Source of the DNA: Balamuthia mandrillaris
Taxonomy: Eukaryota
Length of the DNA: 64,000 nucleotides
Reading direction: 5' to 3'
NCBI GenBank assembly: GCA_031835245.2
Contig: JAVKOQ020000071.1
Location: forward strand, 124,001 to 188,000
Shown here: piece after piece, positions 6,071 through 31,858 of the stretch
Layout of the letters: each line of letters starts with the position of its first letter
Numbering within the stretch: position 1 is the stretch's first letter
Translations under genes and position numbers: made by a program
The notes under the pieces: generated by a model
What the model was told of the DNA's origin: nothing
The model's database searches: none
Seen by the model: only the letters and a program-made list of their open reading frames with translations

Positions 6071-9000
6071 ATGAACCCATGGTGCCCCTTGGGCGAAGAG
6101 GCGACTTTTGTTCGCTTCCAAACTTTCTCTTTCCTCAGGCCTTTATATAGTAACCTCAAAAAAAAAAAAGAAGTGGTCCTGCGGTGCCGCTTGTGCAGCA
6201 GCTGGTACTGCCATGAAGGCACAAGCAGCAAGAGGTATGGTGGTGTTTCCATTGCCCAAGATGCGTTCTTCTGACTCTTATAGCACTCTAAAGGTGAGTT
6301 GGAAGAACGGCTTTCCACAGTGGTGAACAGACATGTATCGAGAAGCGTAAGGCTGGAGGTGCTTGGCGCCATAGCGAAACTTGTAAACTCTGAGAGCTTT
6401 CAGTTTCCTTCTGACCTCGCACAGTTTTTCCAAAGGTTCTCAGCATGATCCCTTTCTTGTTTGTATTTTCGTGTCTTACACTCTCCTTCAAACAGTCTGG
6501 GAGAGCTCCTGTTACATCCTTCTCAAACGCTTAGAGCTTGCACCCTGCGAGTAATTCGCTATTCTCTCAACAGACATCCCGATAAGACCGCCTTCCTGAC
6601 CCAACTCATCACCTCCAACGTTGGTTTCCTGATTGCGAGGTAGCGCTCTTCTTTTTTCTAACCCTTCTCTTTCTCCTGTCTCATTTCTGTTATTCGTCGC
6701 TTGAATGGACTTCGTTGAAACCAAAAAAGGTCGATGGAACGCGAGGAGGAACTTACTCAGGAAAGGGTGGAAGCTTTCAAGTTGGCGCGAGCATTCATAG
6801 GCTTGGACTGTTCCATCTTTCCTCGAAGCATCGTTGCCGCGGTCATCGCCATCGCCGAGACGCATCGTGATGCCTTTTGTAAAGCCTCTTTGGAGCTGCT
6901 CATTGAAATAGGTATCATCTGCATCCAGTCGGTTTCATCCTTTTTTCTTCTCACTTCAACAATAGCGATGACAAACCCCAAGTTGACCGCCTACTGTGGA
7001 GGGTTCGCAACGTTGGTGACGGCTAGTTTCGATCCGCACCACCAGTCCTACCAGCCTCACATACTGGCCGCCCTCCTCAACATCCTCAACGATGAGTCCA
7101 CCCGCGCCTTCCTCCGGACAGACTGTGAGTTGCAGGTATCTCCAGTTCCTCCACCGTTCTGTCGCTTCCTGTGGTCCCCTCCTACTCACAAAACATAACA
7201 AAACATACAGAGCATTGTATCGTTGCTGACAAACAATGATGCAGACGAACCACCAAACAGAGACCGTTGCGCAGCGGCCACTAGGGCCATCTTCAGCATG
7301 CTAAAAAGCTGGAGCGGGCTCATCTCCTTCGCCTCGGACGCCACCGCCTTGACCTCCATCGTGCAGTGCTTGCTCTCCTCCCACCTCCTCATCCAGGAGC
7401 TAGTCCTGGACTCCTTCTTCCAACTCCTCTTCGTTCCCAACTTTGAAACAACCAACAACACCAACGGCAACAGCAGCGGGAATGTCGATTCTTCCAATGC
7501 GGCTGCTGCCAACTCCGCAACCAAAGCAAGCAACACCAACCATCCAAACCCAAACAACAACAACAATAACAACAACATAAGCAACAACGCACCAACTACC
7601 CTTCGAAGACACATGGCTCCCTCCAAAGACGCTCGGGTGGCTGACTTTGGCATTGGAGGCGAGCTCTCCCTGCCGAGCAGGACCTACGGCGAGAGGTGGA
7701 ACCTCAAGGACAACTTTTTGGCCGCCCTCCTGAGCCTCTTCATCGCCAAGGGTTTGGTTGAGGCGTTGGTCTTCCTGGCCATGCGGGTGGAGAAGGATCA
7801 CCCTCAGCTGTCCCTGAAGGCCACCGTCCTGCTGGGTGAGATCTTGCATATGTCCAACCAGCTGTTGCCGCCCTCTCAGTGCGCCCGACTTCAGGTATAT
7901 CAGCTATACCTGTCTTTTGTTCCTCTCCCACGTTTCACTTTCTCGTTCCTTCCTCTGCTTTCTTCTCCTCTCTGTGTTGTTTAATTCCAACCACGTCATT
8001 GAGAAGTAATAATAACTAACACTTGCCGCAACACACACGACCCCAGACTCTCCCCAACTTGATATCATGCTCGGTGTCGAGGGCGGTTCATCCGAGCATG
8101 CGGTCCAATGCCAGCACCATGGTCAGCAACCTTCATCAGTTCTCCCACAACCGGGAGACCAGCAATCACTATGACTTTCACCTGAGCTTGATCGTTACCG
8201 GGGCCAACAAGTGGAGAAGGAGGAAAGGCATGGACAAGAACTTGGACCGCATCGATGACGTGAAGCGGAAGATCGACTGGAGCATGGATGAGAACCAACT
8301 CACGGCCAAGCTGAAGCAGACACAAGTACTTCTTTTTCTACTTCTATTGTTCTCTGCTGTTATGAGCTGCTCTCTTCTTTATTCGATCTCTGTTCTCTCT
8401 TTCTTCTCTCTCTCGCTCTCTCTCTTCTTCCCTTTAGTCTTTCTTCTCTGCTTATTGACATACAAAAAGGTGTTAACGACAAAGGACTATACGAGATGGG
8501 ACTGGGACGTCATAACAGAAGCCTTAGAAGGGCCGTTACGCAACCCTGCCCACCTCAACTACGCCCTCCACACCAAGTTCATCAAGCGCATCATCTCGTT
8601 CCTGCAACCCACTTCAAACAAGTTTGCCAGCATACCGTGCTCTCCGGTTTGTACTTTTCCATGTGAACAGCCTTCACTTCTTCTTCTTTTCTTACTTTCG
8701 GTCTCTCGTCCTCTTCCTTTTTGTTGATGCCCATAGGAGGCTATCAAGTATGTGAGGGCCGCTTGTCAGTTGATGGAACTATTGCTCTCTACCGAGGAAG
8801 GCACGACCTTCCTCTCCGAGAGTCGGTTGATATCTCACATTTCCGATCTTCTGAAGGCTGAAGTGGATGGAGTAAGCTTTCCTATGCTCTCCTTTTTTGT
8901 TTTCAGACATTCTGATAAGTTTTTCTCTTGTTGTTCGCAAAAGAATGGAGGAGCATCCACTCCATCCGCTTCTTCCGGTTTCTCTTCGTCTTCTTCTTTC

Positions 9001-12000
9001 TCTTCGTCCTCTTCCAAAAGGCAAATAGACATCAGGCCAGAGAATGTTCATAAGACTTTGGTGAGGGAGTACTTCACCCTGTTGGGAACGTTGAGCAGGT
9101 AAGTGAAATTTCGTTTTTCTGTTTTATTTCCCGAATTACAACACGACCCCTGTGGGTTCCTTCGGAGTTTTCACGGTCCGTGACACCAAATGCTTGGTTG
9201 TCGGGCACCAAGGTCTACATTCGTTCGGAGGCCTGGACCAGCAAGACTTGCACCTGGTGCCTCCATGTGACTCACGAACAGAAGCAACACAACCAGCGTG
9301 AGCGAATCTTCGAGTGCGGACGCAGGGACTGTGGGATACGACTGGATCGAGATATAAATGGAGCTCGCAACATACTCCTTAGGAGCCTCTGTTGCGGCGT
9401 TGCCCGATGGAGCCATATGGGGGCGTGCTGATGGGAAAGTGGATGGGCGCTTCTGTAGCCCTCTAGCCCACCCCATCACCGCGTCTTCGCAAGAACTTTC
9501 ATTTGTGAGTTTACTCACTTGTGTGATTTTTAATCCATCAGCTATCCCGCCGGCAATGACGTGCTGAAGAAGGCCAAAGTTTTTGCTCATCTGGGAGCCT
9601 TGTTGAGTCTTCAGGGTCGCGATGACCTTCCGTTCCTCATTCTTTCCTGTCTAGACTACAACCTGTACTTCCATCTTCTTGCTCCTTGCTCCATTTCATT
9701 CCTCTTATGTTAACTTCTTTCTGCACAGAGCGGGCTATTCCAGAGTGTTGTTGCAAAAGTCTCTTTCCTCGTCCTCCAAAGTGGTTCGATACATGGCCAC
9801 CAGGCATATGCGCGTCCTGTTGAGAGCCGGTGTTGCGAACTTCTCTGCGTGGGGCATAGAGTTCCTTGTCACTCAAGTTATATTTATTCATTCTTCATTC
9901 TGTCCTCCTTTTTCTCCTTGGCTCTCTTCTTGTTCCCGCTTCTCTTTCATCATCCGCATTCTTTTGAGACAAACGAACCAACCTTCTATTCTTTTATCTT
10001 TCTTTGTTGCTATAGCTGGCCGACAGCAACAAGCGAGTCAAGGAGCTGGCGTTAAGCATCCTGGATGAAGCCTGCGACGAGGACGAATGTCTCGAGTCCC
10101 TCATTTCCAAGAAGCCCCGTTCCCTGCTGGATATGGGGGCAGAGGGCAAGTCCCTCGTCCTTCGCTTTCTCTCCAGAGAGCAGGGCCTGCAGGTAAGTGA
10201 AATTTCGTTTTTCTGTTTTATTTCCCGAATTACAACACGACCCCTGTGGGTTCCTTCGGAGTTTTCACGGTCCGTGACACCAAATGCTTGGTTGTCGGGG
10301 CCGTGTGGAAACTATTTAAGCAACCGCTCCGTTCTTTCCAGTCGTATCCCACAGTCCCTACATGTCACAAACCACCACCATTGACGCTACCACTACCATT
10401 ACCCCACGACTCAGAGAACCCACCGAAGATCTGCACTACATCACCCCCACGAAGCTGATCAAACGCTATGGCGTCTCCCTCAGCGGGCTGGCCAAGTGGC
10501 ACACGGAGGGCAAGGTGGCGGCCCTCCGCACCCCAAGCGGGCACCGCCGCTACGCGGCAGAGCACGTTAGAGAGCTTCTTGGCCTCCCCGCCGCGGTCCC
10601 AGAACCCGAGGCCACCGAAAAGATCAAGGCCATCTACTGTCGAGTCTCCAGTCACAGACAACGAGAGCACCTCAAGCATCAAGTTGAGCGTATGCGAGAA
10701 GCCTACCCGAGGCACAAGGTCTACAGCGACATCAGCTCGGGCATCAACTGGAAGCGCAAGGACTTTGTCGCCCTTCTGGAGCGAGTCCTTGCTGGACATG
10801 TCGAGGAGGTTGTGGTTGCCCACCGAGACCGCCTCTGTCGGATCGCCTACAAGCTCATCGAGCACATCTTCCGTAGGTGCGGAACCCGTCTCCTGGTGCA
10901 CCGTCCGGACGACGAGGACGACGATGAGGCTGAACCAAGCAACGTCCTCGCCGAGGACCTCCTCTCCCTCGTTACCGTCTTTGTCTGTAGACACCACGGT
11001 CAAAGATGATATACAGCTGGCCAAGGAGGCAGCTCGAGCACGTCAAAGAGGCCAAGGCAAACCAAAAAGGGCGACAGAGGAGGATCCAAACGACGACGAA
11101 GAGGAGGAGGAAGATCCGACGCTGTTCAAGACGAGAAAGATACGTCTGAGGCCCACCAAGGAACAAGCCCGGATCCTCAACCACTGGTTCGGAGGGGCGA
11201 GGAAAGTCTGGAACACCACTCTTCGAGACTGCAAGACAACGGAGAAAGAAGAAGAGGAGGAAAAGAAGAGGAGTAGAGTGGCGTGGAAGCTGAGTCGGAT
11301 GCAGGGCGTCTGCGTGGTTAAACCTAGAATCATATTCGATTACTTGGAAGACGTCCCCTACTCCATCAAGCACGAGGCGGTAAAGCAGCTCCACGGCAAT
11401 TACCTCACCTGCTGGACGCTCAAGAAGCAGGGTCATATCCGACGCTTCTCCATCAAGTACAAGCGCAAAAAGGACCACCGCACCGAGTCCATCAAGATCC
11501 TTGGACATTACGTCCACTGGTGGAAGGGCTTCATCTACCCCAACGAGCTCCACGTGAACGAGCGTTGGAAAGAAGCCAATGAAACCCGCAAGAGGACACC
11601 CAGACGACGGCGGTTGCCGAATCCCCACGTTAAGCACATAGACCCCATGTTCGACCCTGTAGCGTATGCTTTAGAAGGCCTGGAGTTGGACGACAAGGGC
11701 CGACTGAGACGAACCTGCACACTGCACAAGGACAAGCGTCAACATTTTTGGCTCTGCGTGCCGATCCCGATCCAACATCATGAACGGGCTCCTGATAACC
11801 AAGGGAGCATCGTGGCCTTGGATCCAGGGGTTCGCACCTTTCTGTGTGGATATAGTCCTACCGAGAGAACGGTGAGGGAGTTTGGACGCAACGACTTTGG
11901 TCGCATCTGGCGCCTCGGAAAGCATGCCGACGCCCTGCAGTCCAAAATCGACCGCTCCCCACCGAGCCGCCGCAAGAGAAAACTTCGCGCTCTGCTCAAA

Positions 12001-13813
12001 CTGAGAAAGAGGGTCACCAACCTGGTCGATGACTTTCACCGCAAGACGGCCCTCTTCCTGTGCCGCCGCTACGACCACATCATCATCCCTCCCTTTGGTG
12101 TGAAGGGCATTACGGCCACCCGAGGGAGGCGACGGAGGAAGATCGGCAAAAAGACCGCCAGGATGCTCTATTCCTGGGGACATTACCGATTCCGCCAGTG
12201 GTTGCTGCACAAGGCGAGGGAATGGGGCACCAAGGTCTACATTCGTTCGGAGGCCTGGACCAGCAAGACTTGCACCTGGTGCCTCCATGTGACTCACGAA
12301 CAGAAGCAACACAACCGGCGTGAGCGAATCTTCGAGTGCGGACGCAGGGACTGTGGGATACGACTGGATCGAGATATAAATGGAGCTCGCAACATACTCC
12401 TTAGGAGCCTCTGTTGCGGCGTTGCCCGATGGAGCCATATGGGGGCGTGCTGATGGGAAAGTGGATGGGCGCTTCTGTAGCCCTCTAGCCCACCCCATCA
12501 CCGCGTCTTCGCAAGAACTTTCATTTGTGAGTTTACTCACTTGTGTGATTTTTAATCCATCAGTACCTCCAAGAAACAGGCTTCGTCGACTCGGAGCTGG
12601 AGCTGTGGAGACAAACGGAGAGCCAGAACTATGTCATGGACATCGAGAAAGCCTTGGACCATACCTTTTCGGATGCCAAGCGAGTGGTCTCGCAGGGCCA
12701 GAAGAAAGGAGTGGTGAACCCTCCTCCCCATTTCTATGGAGAACTGGCCAGAACGGAGCCCGGCTGCTCCGTCTTGAGGGAATCCGGTCACATTCCCTCC
12801 ATGGTGCGGCGCCTGCAGAGCGGACAGGGCTCCTCCCTTTCTTCTCGCGCCATTCTTTGGGCATTGGTACTTGTCTTTCTTGCTATGTTGTCGTTTCTTT
12901 CTTACATTCTCATCTTCTTTGTCTGCTCGCATGAACACAAGGGACACATCGGCTCCTCAAAGACAGGGTTGAAGTTGTTGGAGGAGGAAAAGGCGGTAAA
13001 CTTGATGGTGAACCTTGCCGAAACGAGTCCTTGCCTTTCCATTCGTGGGTACGTCATTCACTTTCTACGAAAGCACTCGTTCAGGTTCTTGTGTGTTGTT
13101 AACACTATTGTTTTATTTTTTTAAAAAAACCAGCACGTGTTTCAATATAATGGGCCTTTTGACGAGAACGGAGGAAGGACGAGGCTTGTTGGCCGCTTTG
13201 GGGTGGGAGAGTCCCGCTTCCCTAAAGCCCAACGTTTGTGTGCCTCGCGACCCGCAAGCTAGCGGGTTCTTCAAGGTTTCTTCTCTTCTTCTTCTTCTTG
13301 TTCTTCTTGTTCTTCTTCTTCTTCTTCTACTTCTTCTTTCTTCCCTCTCCTCTGACAACACAACCACAAAAGCTTCAACAGTGCCAGTACCAAGGCTCAT
13401 GGCCACAAACAAACCCCAAAGTCCCTTCTCTCCTTCTCACTTCCAGCCCCCACAAGAGCAAGAACAAAGGACAAGAAGAAGAAGAAGGCGCAACCACCGA
13501 ACGAAGCAACGAGATCCAGGTGGCGGTGGCCAACCTCGTCAACTACATCACCTGCGACAAGGCTCTGGCAAGCTTGGAGCGCATCAAGGCCAACGATACC
13601 GGCGTTCTGAAGGATCCTCGGACGCGCAGCTTCATGCTGAACATGTTGGAGAGCTACAAGTATCGCTTGAAGCTGCGGCGCTTCATCTACAGTTTGATGG
13701 AAGAGGTGGATGAGGAGGGCGGCGGCGGAGGAGGCAAGTGGGATGGCGCCTTTTGTAAGGATTTACCTCCGGCTCAACCGCGTAGATTCACTTGGCTCGC
13801 AGCTAGAAAGTAG
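6071..13813 (+). CDS. RICTOR: Rictor / Pianissimo (TORC2 subunit), multi-exon, carrying two transposon-introns; start codon uncertain
   Basis: Rictor-type motifs: EERVEAFKLARAFI, KATVLLGEILHMSNQLLP, VLTTKDYTRWDWDVI, EYFTLLGTLS, RDDL...LDY, VRYMATRHMRVLLR, LVLRFLS...GLQYL, PPHFYGELARTEPGC, LWAL(G)HIGSS...G, SPCLSIRGTCF. Stop TAG at 13811-13813. Confidence 0.9.
9099..9541 (+). mobile_element. Non-autonomous 443-bp internal-deletion derivative of the IS607/Fanzor element, forming a phase-2 GT-AG intron in Rictor
   Basis: First ~107 bp match 10193ff and last 336 bp match 12228-12563 with one SNP (A9295 vs G12317). Ends are GCAG|GTAAGT ... CCATCAG|. Removal gives LLGTLS-S-YPAGNDVLKKAKVF...RDDLPFLILSCLDY in frame. 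Confidence 0.95.
10337..10359. repeat. Left arm of a perfect 23-bp internal inverted repeat (right arm 12346-12368)
   Basis: TCCAGTCGTATCCCACAGTCCCT is the exact reverse complement of AGGGACTGTGGGATACGACTGGA in the 3' end of the Fanzor CDS. Confidence 0.95.
10362..11009 (+). CDS. tnpA: IS607-family serine recombinase/transposase TnpA
   Basis: N-terminal MerR-like winged HTH (YGVSLSGLAKWHTEGKVAALRTPSGHRRY) ahead of the catalytic domain: AIYCRVSS (catalytic Ser codon about 10647), DISSGINWKR, VVAHRDRLCR, EDLLSLVTVF. HTH-first order is characteristic of IS607. Intronless. Confidence 0.95.
   Translation: MSQTTTIDATTTITPRLREPTEDLHYITPTKLIKRYGVSLSGLAKWHTEGKVAALRTPSGHRRYAAEHVRELLGLPAAVPEPEATEKIKAIYCRVSSHRQREHLKHQVERMREAYPRHKVYSDISSGINWKRKDFVALLERVLAGHVEEVVVAHRDRLCRIAYKLIEHIFRRCGTRLLVHRPDDEDDDEAEPSNVLAEDLLSLVTVFVCRHHGQR
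10468..12453 (+). CDS. tnpB: Fanzor2 / TnpB-like RNA-guided endonuclease; start may be ATG 10468, 10798 or 10924
   Basis: KTRKIRLRPTKEQARILNHWFGGARKVWN (TnpB N-terminal HTH), RuvC-I IVALDPGVRTF, IIIPPF at the canonical RuvC-II position with the relocated Glu in SEAWTSKTC, zinc finger CTWC...CGRRDC, RuvC-III LDRDINGARNI. Uninterrupted ORF. Confidence 0.93.
   Translation: MASPSAGWPSGTRRARWRPSAPQAGTAATRQSTLESFLASPPRSQNPRPPKRSRPSTVESPVTDNESTSSIKLSVCEKPTRGTRSTATSARASTGSARTLSPFWSESLLDMSRRLWLPTETASVGSPTSSSSTSSVGAEPVSWCTVRTTRTTMRLNQATSSPRTSSPSLPSLSVDTTVKDDIQLAKEAARARQRGQGKPKRATEEDPNDDEEEEEDPTLFKTRKIRLRPTKEQARILNHWFGGARKVWNTTLRDCKTTEKEEEEEKKRSRVAWKLSRMQGVCVVKPRIIFDYLEDVPYSIKHEAVKQLHGNYLTCWTLKKQGHIRRFSIKYKRKKDHRTESIKILGHYVHWWKGFIYPNELHVNERWKEANETRKRTPRRRRLPNPHVKHIDPMFDPVAYALEGLELDDKGRLRRTCTLHKDKRQHFWLCVPIPIQHHERAPDNQGSIVALDPGVRTFLCGYSPTERTVREFGRNDFGRIWRLGKHADALQSKIDRSPPSRRKRKLRALLKLRKRVTNLVDDFHRKTALFLCRRYDHIIIPPFGVKGITATRGRRRRKIGKKTARMLYSWGHYRFRQWLLHKAREWGTKVYIRSEAWTSKTCTWCLHVTHEQKQHNRRERIFECGRRDCGIRLDRDINGARNILLRSLCCGVARWSHMGAC
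12400..12583 (+). ncRNA. Predicted omegaRNA: scaffold in the element right end, guide from the flanking Rictor exon (TACCTCCAAGAAACAGGCTT); 5' boundary unknown
   Basis: Position follows known TnpB/Fanzor biology. Visible pairings: TGATGGG 12451-57 with CCCATCA 12494-500; GAAAGT 12457-62 with ACTTTC 12517-22; TCTT-cgc-AAGA; GTGAG-ttta-CTCAC. No expression data. Confidence 0.55.
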
Positions 13814-24751: not shown

Positions 24752-27700
24752 ATGTCGGACGAGGAAGATGTGCTCGGTTTTATGGAGATAGCGGAGATCA
24801 GAAGTACCGCCTCTGCGCGCAAGCGAAACACCTCTCCTTCTGCTTCTTCTCCGTCTTCTTCTTCGTCTCCGTCTTCTTCTTGCTCTTCTTCCTCTACTTC
24901 TCGGTCTTCTTCTTCTCGTTCTTCTTATTCTTCTTCACTTTACTCTTCCCTTTCGTCGTCGGCCTCTTCGAGTTCAGCTGTGCAACCCACAAAACACGTA
25001 ATACTCTACGAAGACGACGATGACTTTCTCGGCGGACCCGATCAACCCTCCTCCTCCTCTTCTTCATCTTCGTCGTTGTCGTCATCTAAAAAACGCTCTC
25101 CAAAACCTTCTAACCATAACCACAACGACCCCGACTACTCGGACGACGTCATATTTCTCTCTGCTGCTTCGTCCTCCTCCTCTTCCTCAAGCAAAAACCA
25201 ACATAGAAAGACTTCTCCTCCATCTTCTCTATCTAAAGAGCAATCGAAGACAACAACCCGGAATAAGAAAATAAAAGAAGAAGCAGAAAAAACAGCAACG
25301 CCCAAAACGACGAAACAAAGAGCCTCCCTTTCTTCCAGGAAGAGAAGGCTTGGAGAGAACAACAGCTCAACAGCAGCAACCGACAAGAAACGAAGGACTT
25401 CGCCATCCTCAACTTCAAGCACGAAAAGAAAAAGTGTGAAACGTTCAGCGGCACCCTTGAGAGAGGGAGAAGTGATCATTTCCGAAGAGGAGGAAGAAGG
25501 AGAGGAGGAAGGAGTCGCGGAAGAAGTACACAAGAAGGCGGAAGTGGTGGATGTGGACTTTGCCGTTCAACGGCGGAGGCTACGCTTTGGCAGAATGTCA
25601 AGCTCTACTGACATTTCCTCTGGTACCATTTTCATTTGCTTGTTTGCGCGATTGTATGTGTGTGTGTATGTGGTGTGTGGTGTGTATGTTTTAGGGTTAT
25701 TGTTTTTTTTTTTTTTTGCGTCATGCTGATATCGTCAACGTAAAGACAGCACATCGACAACCAACAAACGAAGAACAAACTCAAGAGAGGCTTCATCATC
25801 TCCATCCTCCAGTCCTCTAATCACCACCAGAACGGAACGGTTGTGGGTTGACAAATACGCCCCTCGCTCTGAGGCTGAGCTGGCTCTCTATGGCCCTAAA
25901 GTTTCTGTCGTAAGGGAGTGGTTACAACGCAGCCTTCATGACTTGCGCAAAGGCCGCCCTCAAATATCCTTTCTTCATTCCTTGCTCTTGCCTCCCTTTC
26001 CTCTTTCCTCTCTTTTCTTCCCTCCTTTCTCTTGTTTTTCTTTCGTTCTGGCGGCAGCCTTGACTTCTACATGATGAGATAACGCTGCAAAGTTGTTGTG
26101 TCTAACGGGACCGTCTGGTGGTGGCAAGACAGCTCTCGTTCGGGTATTGGCGGATGAACTTCAGTGTCCACTCATGGAATGGACGAATCCAACCTCTTGT
26201 AAATGGAGTAATGCTGAAAGTAAGTTTATTTCTTTTGTTCTCTTTTAGTATTTATTTATCTTTGACACGTTCGTAGATAGATTATCGGTGAGTTACACAC
26301 CTGCTCTCGAAGAGTTTCGGCGGTTCATGTTACGCAGCGAACGTTATCCATCTTTGATCACACCTTTTCCAACCTCATCGCACTCTTCTATTCCACTTTT
26401 TACTACCACCTCCTCTTCCTCTTCTTCCACAAATTCCAAGAACAGCTCCACCAGAAAAGGCAAGCAGAAACCCAACAACTCTCTAACACTCGGGTCCTTT
26501 CCTCACCACAACAACCATAACACAAAACCACAACTCTCTGGAGAGAAGATAATTCTTTTAGAAGATCTCCCTATGTTAGATAGAGAGGAATGGATCGCTG
26601 AGTTTCGTAACATCCTCCGTGACTATATCGCTCAAGGCCGGTATCCCTTGGTCTTGATCCTTAGCGACGACTCTTTGGGCAACTCTTCTTTGCGACGGCT
26701 GCTCTCCACTGACATTCTGGAAGGACCTCAAGTGGCTCAAGTCAAATGTCCGGCCATCGCTCCCACCAAGTTGACCAAAGTGTTGCGACAAATATTGGCA
26801 GCGGAATACGGACCGGAACATATACTGCCTCCTTCAACCCTTTCCTCGTTGGCGGAGAGCAGTGGTGGTGATCTTCGGCATGCCATCAATGCTCTTCAAT
26901 TCTTTTGCACAAAGAAGGGGCCTGTCTTTGCTCCAAAGTTGGAACAGCCACAGAAAAAGAGAGGTCAAAAAGCAAAAGCGAAAACAAAGTTGGACATTCT
27001 TGTGAATGGGGAAGTGGAGGAAGCACCGAGTGGACCTTCTGCTTTTATCGGAGAGTTAAGGTATTGGTTAATGTTATTGTTTGTTGTTTGTTTTTTAAGG
27101 TTTTGTTTTGGAAGAGTGCTGTTTTCTTATGAATCTCTCTCTCTCTCTCCTCTCTTGGTACAGTCGGATAGGCAGCAGAGACATCTCTCTATCACTATTT
27201 CACGCGCTTGGCAAAATCTTATTTAACAAACGTTCGTTCAAACTCTTTTTTTTTTCTCTCAACCAGGCCTAATATGTTTTTTTTTTTCAAAAAACTAGGG
27301 ATACGAGCATTAACAGAGGAAGACAAGCAACGAGAAAGAAACATTCGTGGTCCCATTGTAGAACCAGACCACCCTTTCTACCGCGCTCCTCCGGAGAATT
27401 GCTGCGAGGACGTTCTCTCTCATGTACCCGCGGAAGCTCGCCTCTTCAACGACTTTCTTCACGAGAACTACGTTCCTTTTTTCCAAGAGACAGATGATTT
27501 GGCGCTCAGCGCTGCCTATCTGTCCGATGCCGAGTTGTTGAGCTCCGATTGGCGAGACTTAGCGGTCTTAGAAGGCTATGCCGCTTCAATCGGCTCTCGC
27601 GGCATTATGTACAGCAACACATGTCCTCCTCCACAACGAGGCTTTCAACCATTGTACAAACCGCATCAGATGCAGGCCCGCATTACGCTTCGAGACAATC

Positions 27701-28477
27701 TTGCCGAATGTCGCCAGTTGTTCACGCCTAATTCTTCTTCTTCATCTACTTATTTTCGTTCTGCTCCTTCCTCTGCATCATCGTTAAGTTTGTCTCGTGC
27801 TTCGTCGTCTTATTCTTCAGCTATCTCCACTTCTCCTTCCGGTTTGCTTTGTTCTCTACTTTTCCATTCTGTAGTTCTCTCCCTTATCGCGCTACTAACG
27901 TTACACTCTATTTTCATTACATCAAAGGAGGGTCGGTTCCTTTTCGGACGGAGGAAAGAAGCCTTCCTCTGGTGACGGAGGTATTGCCCTATCTTCACCG
28001 GATTCGCAGCAACTGCCCACGTGCTCCTTCCGCCCCGTATCGTCGCTCTTATCCTTCACGCTCTGCTTTGCCTTCTTACTATCAACACCAGTATACGCCA
28101 CCTTTCTTGACCCATGGTACCTTCTTCTTTTCTTTCCCCCTTTTCTTTCTTGCGTTCTCTTTTAATCTTTCATTCTAATACCACTTTTTTTTGACAAATA
28201 AACAGCACAAGAAAAGCTGTTGAGTTCGTTGTGCAGTTACTCCCGCACCCACTCCCTTCCTCACTCGGAGCACTTGGACCAAAACGAAGGCGTCACGGCT
28301 CCACAAGAAGAAAACGAAACGCCGATGCAAAACGAAGAGTCCAAAGCCGAGGAGGCAGAAGAAGAAGCACAAGAGCAAGAACAAGATGAAGCAACCTTCA
28401 AGATCCCAAAACCTCAACACCCAAACGAATATTCCTCCGCCGAAGCTCTGTTGGAGGACGACATCACCGACTTTTAA
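24752..28477 (+). CDS. RAD17: Checkpoint clamp loader Rad17 (AAA+) with a long S-rich N-terminus
   Basis: LWVDKYAPRSEAELAL...KVSVVREWL; Walker A LTGPSGGGKTALVRVLA; EWTNP; IILLEDLP; SGGDLRHAINALQF; RDISLSLFHALGKIL; FLHENY; AAYLSDAE. Confidence 0.88.
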
Positions 28478-28695
28478 ACTTTAAAAAAAAACGAGTCCAA
28501 ACGACGTTGTCGACAGGAATGTGTCGCTTCGCAAAGGAACAACAATTGCCTTTTTTCGGGACTACTATATACATTAAACTCAAACAAACAAAAAAAACAA
28601 GTGGAGGAGGGTGGAGCACAACAGAAACCAACAACAAAACAAAAAAGAAAACATACAAAGCAGCGAAAAAGAACAAACAAACAAACGTGGGTTCG

Positions 28696-30070
28696 ATGAT
28701 GACCACACCAACCACCATCACGTCCCCGCGAAAATCTTCTTCTCCTGAAACTCTCGGCCTACGAAGAGACTCCATAGGAGGAAACCGCGGGAACATCTCC
28801 CCGGACAAAGATGAGAACAGACGAAGACCCCTTTCGGCGAGAGAGACCTCTTCTCCACTGAAGAGGGACACGAGGCCGGTGACAGCGGGCTTCAATCGTA
28901 GATCTTCCGCCTCCGACTTGTCCGCCATCGACAGCGACAGCGGAATGGCGGTAGAAGGGGAAGGCACTTTGCCCCCTCCTTCTTTCTCATCTCCTTCATT
29001 GAGTTCGTTTCCTTCTTCCACTTCTTTGATGGACTATAGCCAGCCACCCACTTCTCCACGCGGTTTCAACAGAAACGCGAGAGACAAACAACAGTCACAG
29101 CTACAAATTTCATCTTCCCCCTCAGGATGGGTACGAAGCGTTCCCAAAGATGAGTGGAAGTGGAAAGCGGAGGTGGAGGAGCGTCGACGCAAGATGACTG
29201 AGAAAGAGTTGGAAGATACCAGGAGACAACTGGCTAACTTGATAGCCTCACTCGACGAGCCGTTCAAATCAGATGCCAATGCCACCACCAACAACAACAG
29301 CACCAACTCTTCGGGTGGAGCAGAAAGGGGGTCAGTGCTGTCTCTTTCCAGTGGAGGTCTTCCTGGCTTTGCTGAGGTTCCAACGTTCATAAAGCAAGAC
29401 CGGGGAAACATGGCGGCAGCAGGCTCTCAGTTTGGCATGGTGATAGCGGAGTTGGATGCGATGAACGCCTCTGGGCCGTTCAGCCTCTCCGCTTTGGAGG
29501 ACAAATTGGAGGTGGATGGCTATGGCATGGAATCAGAGGAAGGAGGGAGTGGCGCTCTTATTCAGGATGCTGCGAGCTCAGCGGAACAGATGGAACGGTT
29601 TGGGCATGTGCATGAGTTTAATGAAGAGGCAGAGACAAACCTTCGCTTTGATGAGAGTGGAGTGAGCGCCGCTTCGCTGACAAAGTTGGTGGAAATGATC
29701 ACACTGCCCACTAAACATGGTTTCTCTTCTTTCGCCCTCTTCACCTTTTCTATCTGTCTTCTCCACTTTCTTCTACCAGCTTTTCTAACATGTTCTCCCC
29801 ACTTGAAGACCATAACTTGGTGATGGCTTTCTTTATTACATGTCGTTCGTTCACCACGCCGCGAGTAGTGCTAGAGAAACTAATTCTTAGGTTATTCTTT
29901 TTTGTTCCCTTTTCTTGCGGAGTAAACGAAACGCCAATTGACCTTAAACATATAGATATGCGGCACCTCCGCCACGCACAGGTACATGGGAAGAAAAAGA
30001 TCGGTTTACTAAAGAGCAACAACCGGTAATTCGACTTCGTGTCTGTAACGCATTGCGGTACCATGCCCGA

Positions 30071-30117
<47 letters not shown>

Positions 30118-31858
30118 TTCTCCTCTTATTGAATTGTTGGACAATAGTCATTGGATAGAAAAGCATGAGTATGGTATGTTCGCTCTTCCTTTCTGTTATT
30201 TCTCCCTCCTCCAAAAATAGGAAGTTATTCTTAAGTTAGATGGAAAAACCTTATATCTGGATAAACAAAATAGACTTTGAGAATAAAGTTCTTCGAAAGA
30301 GGTTCCTGTGGTTCGCCCAAAACGTTGTAGAGCAGGAAAAGATGAGAGACATGCTTGCCAAAGCATTTGACAAAGCCATCCAAAAACTGAACAGAACCTA
30401 CGACAAATTACAGCTCATTGACGAACTCAACTACATCAAACGACGTCAAGAAACGATTGTTGAGGTATGGTTTATGTTCTTATTATTTTCATTTGTTGGT
30501 TTGTTCCAGAAACAAACAGAAAACTATTGCAGAAACTTAAAACATTCGAAGAAGAGCCACTGTCGAACCCTCGTGAAACCAACGCCCCCAGGCCCATGCT
30601 ACCCAAGAACTTCCAAGCGAGAGAAAGGTTTTTGTTGGACTGGCACCCCACGGAGATTGCTAGGCAGATCACCCTCATCGAATTGTACATTCTTTGTTAT
30701 CTTCTTCATTGCTTCGACTTTCTTTACTCATTCTTTTCTTACGTGGTAAATCAACAACAGTGATTTGTTTCAGCGGATACAACCGAAAGAATTCTTGAAT
30801 CAAAGTTGGAACAAGCAAGGCAGAGAAGACAAGGCGCCTGGTATATGTGCCCTGATAGATAGGTTTAACGAGGTACCCACTCCACTACCTCCACTCATCG
30901 TCATCGTATTGAACTAAAAAGCTCCTTATTTTTGTTGCAGATGAGCATGCTGATGGCAACTTCCATTCTGTTGTTAGAAGATTTGGACGACAGACGAGCA
31001 ATGCTCAAGAAATGGATACTAGTTGCTGAGGTTCATTCTCCCTTTTCTCGAACGAACTTTTCTCGTTTTCAACTGGACTCAACTTTTAATCACAGGAATG
31101 TTTTACTATGAATAACTTTAATGCATTGATGGAAGTCGTGTCGGGGCTGAACGCTCCTTCATTGACAAGGCTGTCTCGAACGTGGGATGCGCTATCCTCA
31201 AAAACTAAAGATAAGTTTCGCGAGCTGACGTTGGTTACCGCCACTGAGAAAAACTTCAAAACCTTGCGAGAGCGTGTGGCTAGCGCTCCTCCTCCAAAGC
31301 TGCCTTATATTGGCACCGCTTTAGCTGACCTCACCTTCATTGAAGAAGGTGCCCTCCTCTTCTTCCTTTCTCACTAGCAACTTTATTGTTAAATATTCAC
31401 ATGCGTGAACAGGCAACCCAGACTACACAGAAGAGGGGCTCATCAACTTTGCAAAGCGGCAGGTAAGTGAAATTTCGTTTTTCTGTTTTATTTCCCGAAT
31501 TACAACACGACCCCTGTGGGTTCCTTCGGAGTTTTCACGGTCCGTGACACCAAATGCTTGGTTGTCGGGGCTGTGTGGAAACTTTCATTTGTGAGTTTAC
31601 TCACTTGTGTGATTTTTAATCCATCAGCTGCTGACAACTGTGATAGTGCACATGCAAACCTACCAACAACAGCGATACAACTACATGGCTGTACCGCCAC
31701 TCAAAACCTACTTGTTGACGCATCCACTGCTGCCAGCCGAAGAATGTTATGAGCGCTCGTTGCGGTTGGAGCCCAGAAGAGTCACTGTACGAGCCAGTGA
31801 AGGCAGAAAATCCAGCGTCAATCGCAAGGGCTCAGTTCAGAATGTTCTTTCCTCGTAA
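28696..31858 (+). CDS. Ras guanine-nucleotide exchange factor (REM + CDC25 domains), carrying a mini transposon-intron
   Basis: AASLTKLVE; FFITCRSFTTP; WHPTEIARQITLIE; IQPKEFLNQSW; MNNFNALMEVVSGL; PYIGTALADLTFIEEGNPD...LINFAKRQ|LL; YERSLRLEPR. Confidence 0.9.
31463..31627 (+). mobile_element. 165-bp miniature non-coding derivative of the IS607/Fanzor element, forming a phase-0 GT-AG intron in RasGEF
   Basis: 121 bp of left end (one SNP vs 10193-10313) joined at AACT microhomology to 44 bp of right end (12520-12563). Ends are GCAG|GTAAGT...CCATCAG|. Removal gives GLINFAKRQ|LLTTVIVHMQTYQQQRY. Confidence 0.95.

Follow-up and report, generated by a model that had tools for sequence, protein, structure and literature searches.

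Transposons of the IS607 family that act as introns are known from bacteria as IStrons, in which the 3′ strand of the omegaRNA pseudoknot overlaps the 3′ splice site and splicing separates scaffold and guide (accessible parts of 10.1101/2023.11.20.567912 and PMC13521648). In eukaryotes, spliceosomal Introners have been assigned to terminal inverted repeat (TIR) DNA, long terminal repeat (LTR), non-LTR, Helitron and Crypton classes (accessible text of PMC12130899), and IS607-like Fanzor2 elements are not reported as introns in the available portions of PMC10432273, PMC10711439, PMC3627910 and PMC10530073. Here we analyse a 64,000-nt stretch of the Balamuthia mandrillaris genome (assembly GCA_031835245.2, contig JAVKOQ020000071.1, positions 124,001 to 188,000; hereafter the window, whose own numbering is used throughout), which carries three copies of what is probably a genuine Fanzor2-encoding IS607 element that also serves as a spliceosomal intron and whose guide scaffold lies over the acceptor. 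The element, its features and its main host gene, Rictor, all lie on the + strand.

The full-length element (copy 2, 10193..12563, 2,371 nt, with ends GT...AG) interrupts an exon of the Rictor gene (6284..13813, with 13 ordinary introns besides copies 1 and 2) in phase 0. Copy 1 (9099..9541, 443 nt), also in Rictor, consists of 107 nt of the left end and 339 nt of the right end including the whole scaffold, and copy 3 (31463..31627, 165 nt, + strand), in a RasGEF gene, of 121 nt of the left end and only the last 48 nt of the element. All three lie on the sense strand within exons, directly after GCAG, and read GTAAGT...CCATCAG, i.e., three near-identical copies in two genes at GT-AG intron positions, an Introner-type feature within the window. 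At copy 2, GCAG (10189..10192) is the predicted target-adjacent motif (TAM) and would also form the exonic half of the 5′ splice site, GTAAGT (10193..10198) is both left end and 5′ splice site, and the right end is UCCAUC followed by the acceptor AG (12556..12563). The first bases of the next exon (12564..12583) are the predicted guide, by comparison with the boundaries of IS607 TnpB and ApmFz2. GCAG also precedes one further left junction in sequencing run X11 (loose end at 10188), and GTAAGT starts only one of 27 hand-placed host introns. The target and the right end have AG or CAG in common, and removal leaves no footprint; an element-versus-window BLAST, with the ends also scanned for repeats separately, found no end-to-end inverted match. 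Contigs leaving the element at 12563 into other flanks number 16 in run X1 and 13 in run X15.

Its DNA ends can be read as a GT and an AG splice site, so the spliceosome is likely to remove the element as a whole. Once the 13 ordinary introns and both copies are taken out, Rictor is a frame of 1,172 amino acids with a single terminal stop, and a public B. mandrillaris Rictor protein runs straight across both insertion sites (948 of 1,009 columns identical). Likewise, the RasGEF frame opens on removal of copy 3, which introduces an in-frame stop when retained. The 27 host introns were placed by hand, and the open frame backs 13 of them in Rictor and four in RasGEF; the full hand-made models of RasGEF and of a neighbouring Rad17-like gene still contain stops, and both are incomplete. 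None of the runs listed by the sequencing-run search was recorded as RNA. In X11, a set of contigs taken to be RNA by guess only, one contig at depth 20.9 skips exactly the 2,371 nt from GT to AG (the joined form), together with a 139-nt GT-AG intron. The element-joined junction is present beside it, with depths that are almost nil at the left end, 181-938 over the body and 459.8 at the right-end/exon junction, about 22 times the spliced junction, so that most junction RNA seems to lack the left end. The joined form was seen for one of the three copies in one run, in which copy 1 had no coverage. We also note that a Rictor contig of X11 starts at 9680, inside a predicted 64-nt intron (9665-9728), which suggests retention or a misplaced boundary, and that the public gene models carry wrong labels for this Rictor: P0124, which is fused with the element, is called a transposase, and P0126 FKBP11.

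By its sequence, the element is an IS607-type transposon that bears a serine recombinase and a Fanzor2. Its TnpA (10362..11009) combines a MerR-like helix-turn-helix (HTH) with a serine recombinase domain (Pfam Resolvase, 2.2e-15) and matches the TnpA proteins of ISC1904, ISC1926 and IS1535 in the PDB; in copy 2 it ends at an early stop, a codon in which X11 contigs and X18 reads have another base. The Fanzor2 frame (11005..12453) is open from 10459, with no Met before the HTH. Its best PDB match is the mimivirus Fanzor2 9b0l (2.2e-26), and the RuvC residues D273-P274-G275, the shifted E416 (before the zinc finger) and D457 are intact and invariant in 33 aligned proteins. The nearest named matches of the nuclease are B. 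mandrillaris proteins at 99% and 74% identity, followed by an unnamed protein at 57% and by named relatives from other taxa near 33%. Narrow searches found no close Fanzor relatives in viral or metagenome contigs, the right-end pattern had no match in viral contigs, and nhmmer searches with either element end gave no match in 79 viral loci. The Fanzor frame is shifted against TnpA (10940-11130); public gene models join the two by differing introns, and no such joint is listed in X11. A sigma-70 scan, which is not applicable to a eukaryotic host, gave no match.

The last 114 nt of the element (12450..12563) had been singled out by a preliminary description, which placed the 3′ splice signals and the omegaRNA scaffold in the same 110 nt and proposed that mutually exclusive pairings there, or Fanzor binding, may decide between splicing and guide production and could modulate Rictor. 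Its motifs were all found: TACTCAC at 12534, GTGAG and CTCAC at 12527 and 12536, CCATCAG at 12557, CTGATGG at 12450, CCCATCA at 12494, GAAAGT at 12457, ACTTTC at 12517 and TTTAAT at 12551. The extent of the scaffold was too short, as the homologous scaffold begins near 12382-12420 and has its key strand at 12428-33, giving a predicted omegaRNA scaffold of about 180 nt (12382..12563, with a putative 5′ end) that overlaps the Fanzor C-terminus. When 12382-12563 is folded, GAUGGA (12428..12433) pairs with UCCAUC (12556-61) in what we call helix P with probability (P) 0.97, together with a long hairpin B (12441..12510; 12441-57/12494-510, inner stem 12462-70/12480-87) at 0.99 and a terminal hairpin D (12527..12540) at 0.79, the GTGAG/CTCAC hairpin already foreseen, whose probability is 0.50-0.98 across folds. 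The region folds better than 200 of 200 shuffles (z -3.19). The terminal CCAUC thus most likely pairs, according to folding and homology, with GAUGG at 12428-32, outside the 114-nt stretch; this pairing coexists with the long hairpin, which contains CTGATGG and locks it. The 12428..12433 strand is the predicted homolog of the pseudoknot strand (PK-1) of TnpB and Fanzor2. Helix P agrees with the pseudoknot that IS607 TnpB requires (available part of PMC10711439) and with that of ApmFz2, which pairs C(-2) (available part of PMC11832414).

A comparison with related elements points to the same partner. The 79 viral loci comprise seven pairs with a common element and different flanks, of which five have usable right ends (L036/L039, at a contig end, and L023/L024, with a different end type and an undefined left end, were left out; the ends of L021/L033 were moved in by one base). 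In all ten end-defined loci of these five pairs, the pentamer at -7..-3 has its complement 45-58 nt past the C-terminal Gly codon, and its sequence differs between families while the pairing is kept. The corresponding pentamer of the window, CCAUC, has complements at +46 (12428), at +70 (the one named in the preliminary description) and at +82. MAFFT puts 12428 on the strand of the relatives, with 3′ ends not aligned across families, and locus L030 has a context near-identical to the 12428 strand of the window with a compensated pair. Written as a fixed motif, the arrangement is found in 11 of the 40 viral loci that are non-redundant (on average 1.09 and at most 6 in 500 shuffles), a set that includes the source loci of the motif, and in 9 of 46 held-out metagenome loci (shuffle mean 1.38; none of 1,000 shuffles reaches 9), or 8 of 45 if L125 is dropped as a duplicate of the training locus L078. 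The candidate pseudoknot partners GUGGAU 12461-66, the apical-loop CUG 12475-77 and GAUGG 12464-68 were dropped: none is at the homologous position, and the strand takes 6.5 kcal/mol to free at 12428, compared with 13.5 at 12452 and 10.7 at 12464. One single-copy, prokaryote-like IS607 element (L101:2128-2207) has a motif-predicted, putative end in AG rather than GG.

These folds also bear on the proposed switch, according to which CTGATGG flips between CCCATCA, leaving the acceptor free, and CCATCAG, burying it, and thereby sets splicing against guide production. Both pairings exist, the first as part of the 16-pair helix 12441-57/12494-510, in which the true partner of CCCATCA is TGATGGG (12451-57), one base off the 7-mer first described. 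In an RNA starting at 12450 the two are near-isoenergetic (-33.2 versus -33.4 kcal/mol), and the terminal CTGATGG/CCATCAG helix has P 0.52 in 12450-12563, 0.85 in 12440-12583, where it is aided by the exon of copy 2, and 0.28 in 12225-12583. The three GATGG copies (12428, 12452 and 12464) moreover arise in only 0.14% of 5,000 dinucleotide shuffles; 2.9% of these shuffles contain a 7-nt stretch complementary to the terminal 7-mer. However, once 12441-49 are added and the exon is absent the CCCATCA hairpin is ahead by 11 kcal/mol, and with the full scaffold the terminal helix falls to 0.00 (at most 0.15 with the exon of copy 2, and 0.00 with that of copy 1); the strands are complementary, then, and compete mainly in truncated folds, their extension into the exon being specific to copy 2. 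A single full-scaffold fold holds helix P, the long hairpin and the terminal hairpin together. The suggested GAAAGT/ACTTTC pseudoknot could not be confirmed: its P is at most 0.016 in all nested folds and 0.00 in 12382-12563—RNAfold cannot score a true pseudoknot—and it uses bases that also belong to the long hairpin, while T12520C disrupts it.

Natural variation argues in the same direction. Among the 22 variants listed from four runs (12445-12549), 14 fall on hairpin B, where four turn G-U pairs into Watson-Crick pairs, five do the reverse and five disrupt pairing (one at the pair that closes the apical loop, the other four in the outer and middle stems). At 12448-12503, the pairs U-G, C-G and U-A all occur; the pattern gives modest support to the hairpin, with no significance figure attached. 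A12530G preserves hairpin D as G-U. Of the three variants that fall on the CTGATGG/CCATCAG helix, two break it, one leaves a wobble and none compensates: the common T12451C (summed depth 456 of 1,255 in X1 and 224 of 278 in X15) breaks it at the acceptor A and T12454C does so as well, both uncompensated, while A12453G leaves both CTGATGG helices intact as G-U. Copy 3 lacks CTGATGG, GAAAGT and CCCATCA, i.e., every upstream partner, and the last 12 bases of its fold are 0.85-0.98 unpaired. The variant listing contains no substitution in 12419-44, 12461-66, 12534-40 or 12551-63 in the four runs. Taken together, a switch through CTGATGG appears very improbable.

The conflict behind that proposal is nevertheless likely to be real, now with the spliceosome: the right end is at once transposon end, predicted scaffold and spliceosomal acceptor, an IStron-like arrangement, and splicing would sever the scaffold from its guide, with a cut at the scaffold/guide boundary suggested by homology to IS607 TnpB and ApmFz2. 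As for the branch point, neither proposed site is singled out. TACTCAC (A12539, 24 nt from the end) lies, as described, within the predicted hairpin D and recurs in one Rictor intron 22 nt from its end, the second candidate TTTAAT (12551..12556; A12555, 8 nt from the end) abuts helix P in the predicted fold, and both are within the host range, as YTNAY occurs 6-34 nt from the end in 25 of the 27 hand-placed introns. Separately, the X11 contig of the right-end/Rictor junction (459.8) is deeper than the family-wide feeder contig (244.6) and the downstream exon contig (140.3), an excess over 12534-12590 that looks as if many molecules start, or reverse transcription stops, in 12535-60, the site of both branch candidates.

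Several observations weigh against a spliced element with such a scaffold. Regarding splicing, X11 is guessed RNA in the form of contigs and lacks same-sample DNA, so that an empty homolog could give the joined form; the insertion site indeed looks empty in X1 and X15, and from the raw RNA runs X17-X19 came no more than 40, 51 and 1 reads, most of them 90-95% alike and none with a joint across the element, too few and too diverged for splicing to show. The right-end/exon junction of copy 3 is present in X11, which indicates that even a short copy is not always spliced, or that DNA is present. Regarding the scaffold, the motif is absent from 29 of 40 viral and 37 of 46 metagenome loci; 12428 has the best flank score of the three, but a negative one (-6.4, against -11.1 and -17.8); motif and offset range were chosen after the data had been seen, and the match of the window itself is therefore not independent; helix P and the CTGATGG helices are all absent from the minimum free energy (MFE) structure of the whole 2.5-kb element; in some exon-flanked folds the probability of helix P drops to 0.37-0.69; and hairpin B is broken by T12451C, T12454C, A12500C and G12505A. 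In favour of a division of labour, by contrast, short copies probably dominate, judging from summed DNA contig depth, a quantity that does not equal copy number: 614 (12390), 2,501 (12503) and 13,158 (12530) with a flank of 44 in X1, and 49, 790 and 4,595 with a flank of 64 in X15, the value at 12530 exceeding the one at 12503 by a factor of 5-6 and the one at 12390 by a factor of 20 or more; loose ends lie at 12516 and 12525. Further families join the element at 12419-21, 12516 and 12525, and a second family matching the P0004 C-terminus has the same right end (12370-12563) and is more abundant in X11 (633 versus 252).

The empty-looking site fits the alternative that GT and AG stand at the ends by coincidence: the element would be an ordinary IS607-like Fanzor2 transposon that knocks out one allele, and the spliced-looking RNA would come from the empty homolog. 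A second Rictor protein on record, roughly 96% identical, lacks the insertions, and the prokaryote-like relative mentioned above may end in AG as well. Against this, the three copies without exception are exonic and in sense and carry a consensus donor and two motifs that resemble branch sites, and the joined contig matches the haplotype of the window, with one difference in 371 exon bases compared with three in 111 for the X1 allele, and runs, judging from contig breaks, into a window-type exon contig. These figures favour splicing of the element-bearing haplotype over an X1-type empty allele, and we consider the incidental reading improbable.

A different regulatory scheme concerns the choice of 3′ splice site. 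A perfect 23-bp inverted match links 10337..10359, which covers the internal AGs at 10340-41 and 10353-54 and ends 2 nt before the TnpA ATG, to 12346..12368 in the Fanzor coding sequence just upstream of the scaffold (both on the + strand). With its flanks the duplex reaches -54 kcal/mol and is present in the whole-element MFE structure, and only 1 of 300 shuffles gave a match of 23 or more; its arms lie 2 kb apart. The duplex would loop out the 2-kb cargo and hide the internal acceptors, reducing the effective intron to a few hundred bases (introns of this genome have a mean length of 113 nt; available text of 10.1101/2025.02.25.640156), and the whole element would then be spliced; with the duplex unformed, the left-end donor would join CAG 10352-54, and the host promoter would drive TnpA, Fanzor and an intact guide. 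An X11 body contig begins exactly at the C of this CAG (10352), just as the downstream exon contig begins at the C of the terminal CAG, and the translation of gene model P0124 reads, to us, as if the 10352-54 acceptor were used. On the other hand, a joint from 10192 to 10355 is not listed for Rictor in X11, whose contigs cannot show RNA starts, a promoter near 10350 accounts for the same depth, and the 5′ arm was not seen in other families; the 23 letters of the 3′ arm start the loose-end consensus of the second family in X11, X18 and X1. The long-range duplex is a better candidate for a switch than the CTGATGG hairpin, and acceptor choice by this means is possible, if on balance doubtful.

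For an intron-like Fanzor2 element, the following scenario can be envisaged. TnpA would insert the element at (G)CAG with a crossover at the shared AG or CAG, so that the target AG/CAG could provide the acceptor along with the exonic half of the donor. A single fold is predicted for the last ~180 nt, made up of a 5′ stem, helix P, the long hairpin and the terminal hairpin; the guide would be the next ~20 exon bases, directing Fanzor to the empty site. The acceptor and the branch region would be covered by this fold or by bound Fanzor, and splicing would cut the scaffold from the guide, so that any one molecule could meet only one of the two fates. Division of labour, more than a hairpin switch, is probably the main way in which the conflict is managed: RNAs without the left end would carry genes and guide, host transcripts would splice the element out, and short copies without the upstream pseudoknot strand may act as plain introns. 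A more elaborate version, which we regard as unlikely, has nuclease-gated spliceosomal introns, with Fanzor on the folded right end and the 23-bp duplex choosing between clean splicing and an internal acceptor that expresses transposase, nuclease and guide; were it true, the element would tune host genes such as Rictor and drive homing into empty alleles, and many short introns would have been seeded by RNA-guided intron gain. The other genes concerned in the window are the Rad17-like gene (24753-28478, a weak Pfam match) and the RasGEF gene (about 28700-31857).

Compared with known systems, the element resembles the IS607-family IStrons (CboIStron and Group B IStrons) in its serine-recombinase TnpA and TnpB-type nuclease, in ends that coincide with splice sites, and in a helix P 3′ strand placed at the 3′ splice site. 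The scarless junction at the DNA ends typical of IStrons was found here too, in a joined form whose RNA origin is not fully proven. In contrast with IStrons, which have a group I ribozyme, the element has none (no Rfam match at E up to 1), a 165-nt copy is structurally sufficient, the GT-AG ends need the spliceosome and the host is a eukaryote; it also ends in CAG after GCAG, as opposed to CGG after GG (available text of PMC13565253). As judged from its sequence, it behaves in the manner of an IStron yet falls short on the group I component.

The element fits the Introners, with splicing shown only indirectly: its copies are near-identical and multiple, precise removal restores exons, most are non-autonomous derivatives, and presence varies between strains. 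Unlike the Introner classes listed above, it encodes an RNA-guided nuclease, the scaffold of whose guide coincides with the acceptor region, and IS607, TnpB and Fanzor are absent from the main text of PMC12130899, as far as available, and from 12 of its 14 supplements. With the IS607-like Fanzor2 elements (ApmFz2/ISvMimi, NlovFz2 and Acanthamoeba ACa) it has in common a DPG and shifted-E RuvC, a serine recombinase neighbour, no TIRs found and a predicted pseudoknot adjoining the guide, the pairing between an upstream loop and guide-adjacent bases being found here by homology and folding; those elements have a G-rich TAM and a GG end, whereas this one has GCAG and AG. The literature searched, which also took in the available part of PMC11423790 and had subscription papers, Repbase and bioRxiv supplements outside its scope, contained neither Balamuthia with Fanzor and intron nor Fanzor with Introner; PMC9860276, in its accessible part, names Balamuthia only in a table of assemblies, and links between IS607 and splicing were confined to the IStron papers and a 2026 review. 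A Fanzor2 IS607 system acting as a spliceosomal intron is thus apparently undescribed. It would join IStrons—bacterial, ribozyme-spliced and maintained by TnpB—with Introners, which are eukaryotic and spliceosomal and have few known autonomous partners, and turning the GG dinucleotide of the IS607 end into AG, beside the conserved pseudoknot C, would suffice for a YAG acceptor without a ribozyme. This would provide a compact, testable route to new introns, with a target motif, a recombinase known by name and a homing nuclease that could push them through a population; for Fanzor engineering, it predicts a CAG-type TAM and a scaffold that reaches further 5′ than first assumed.

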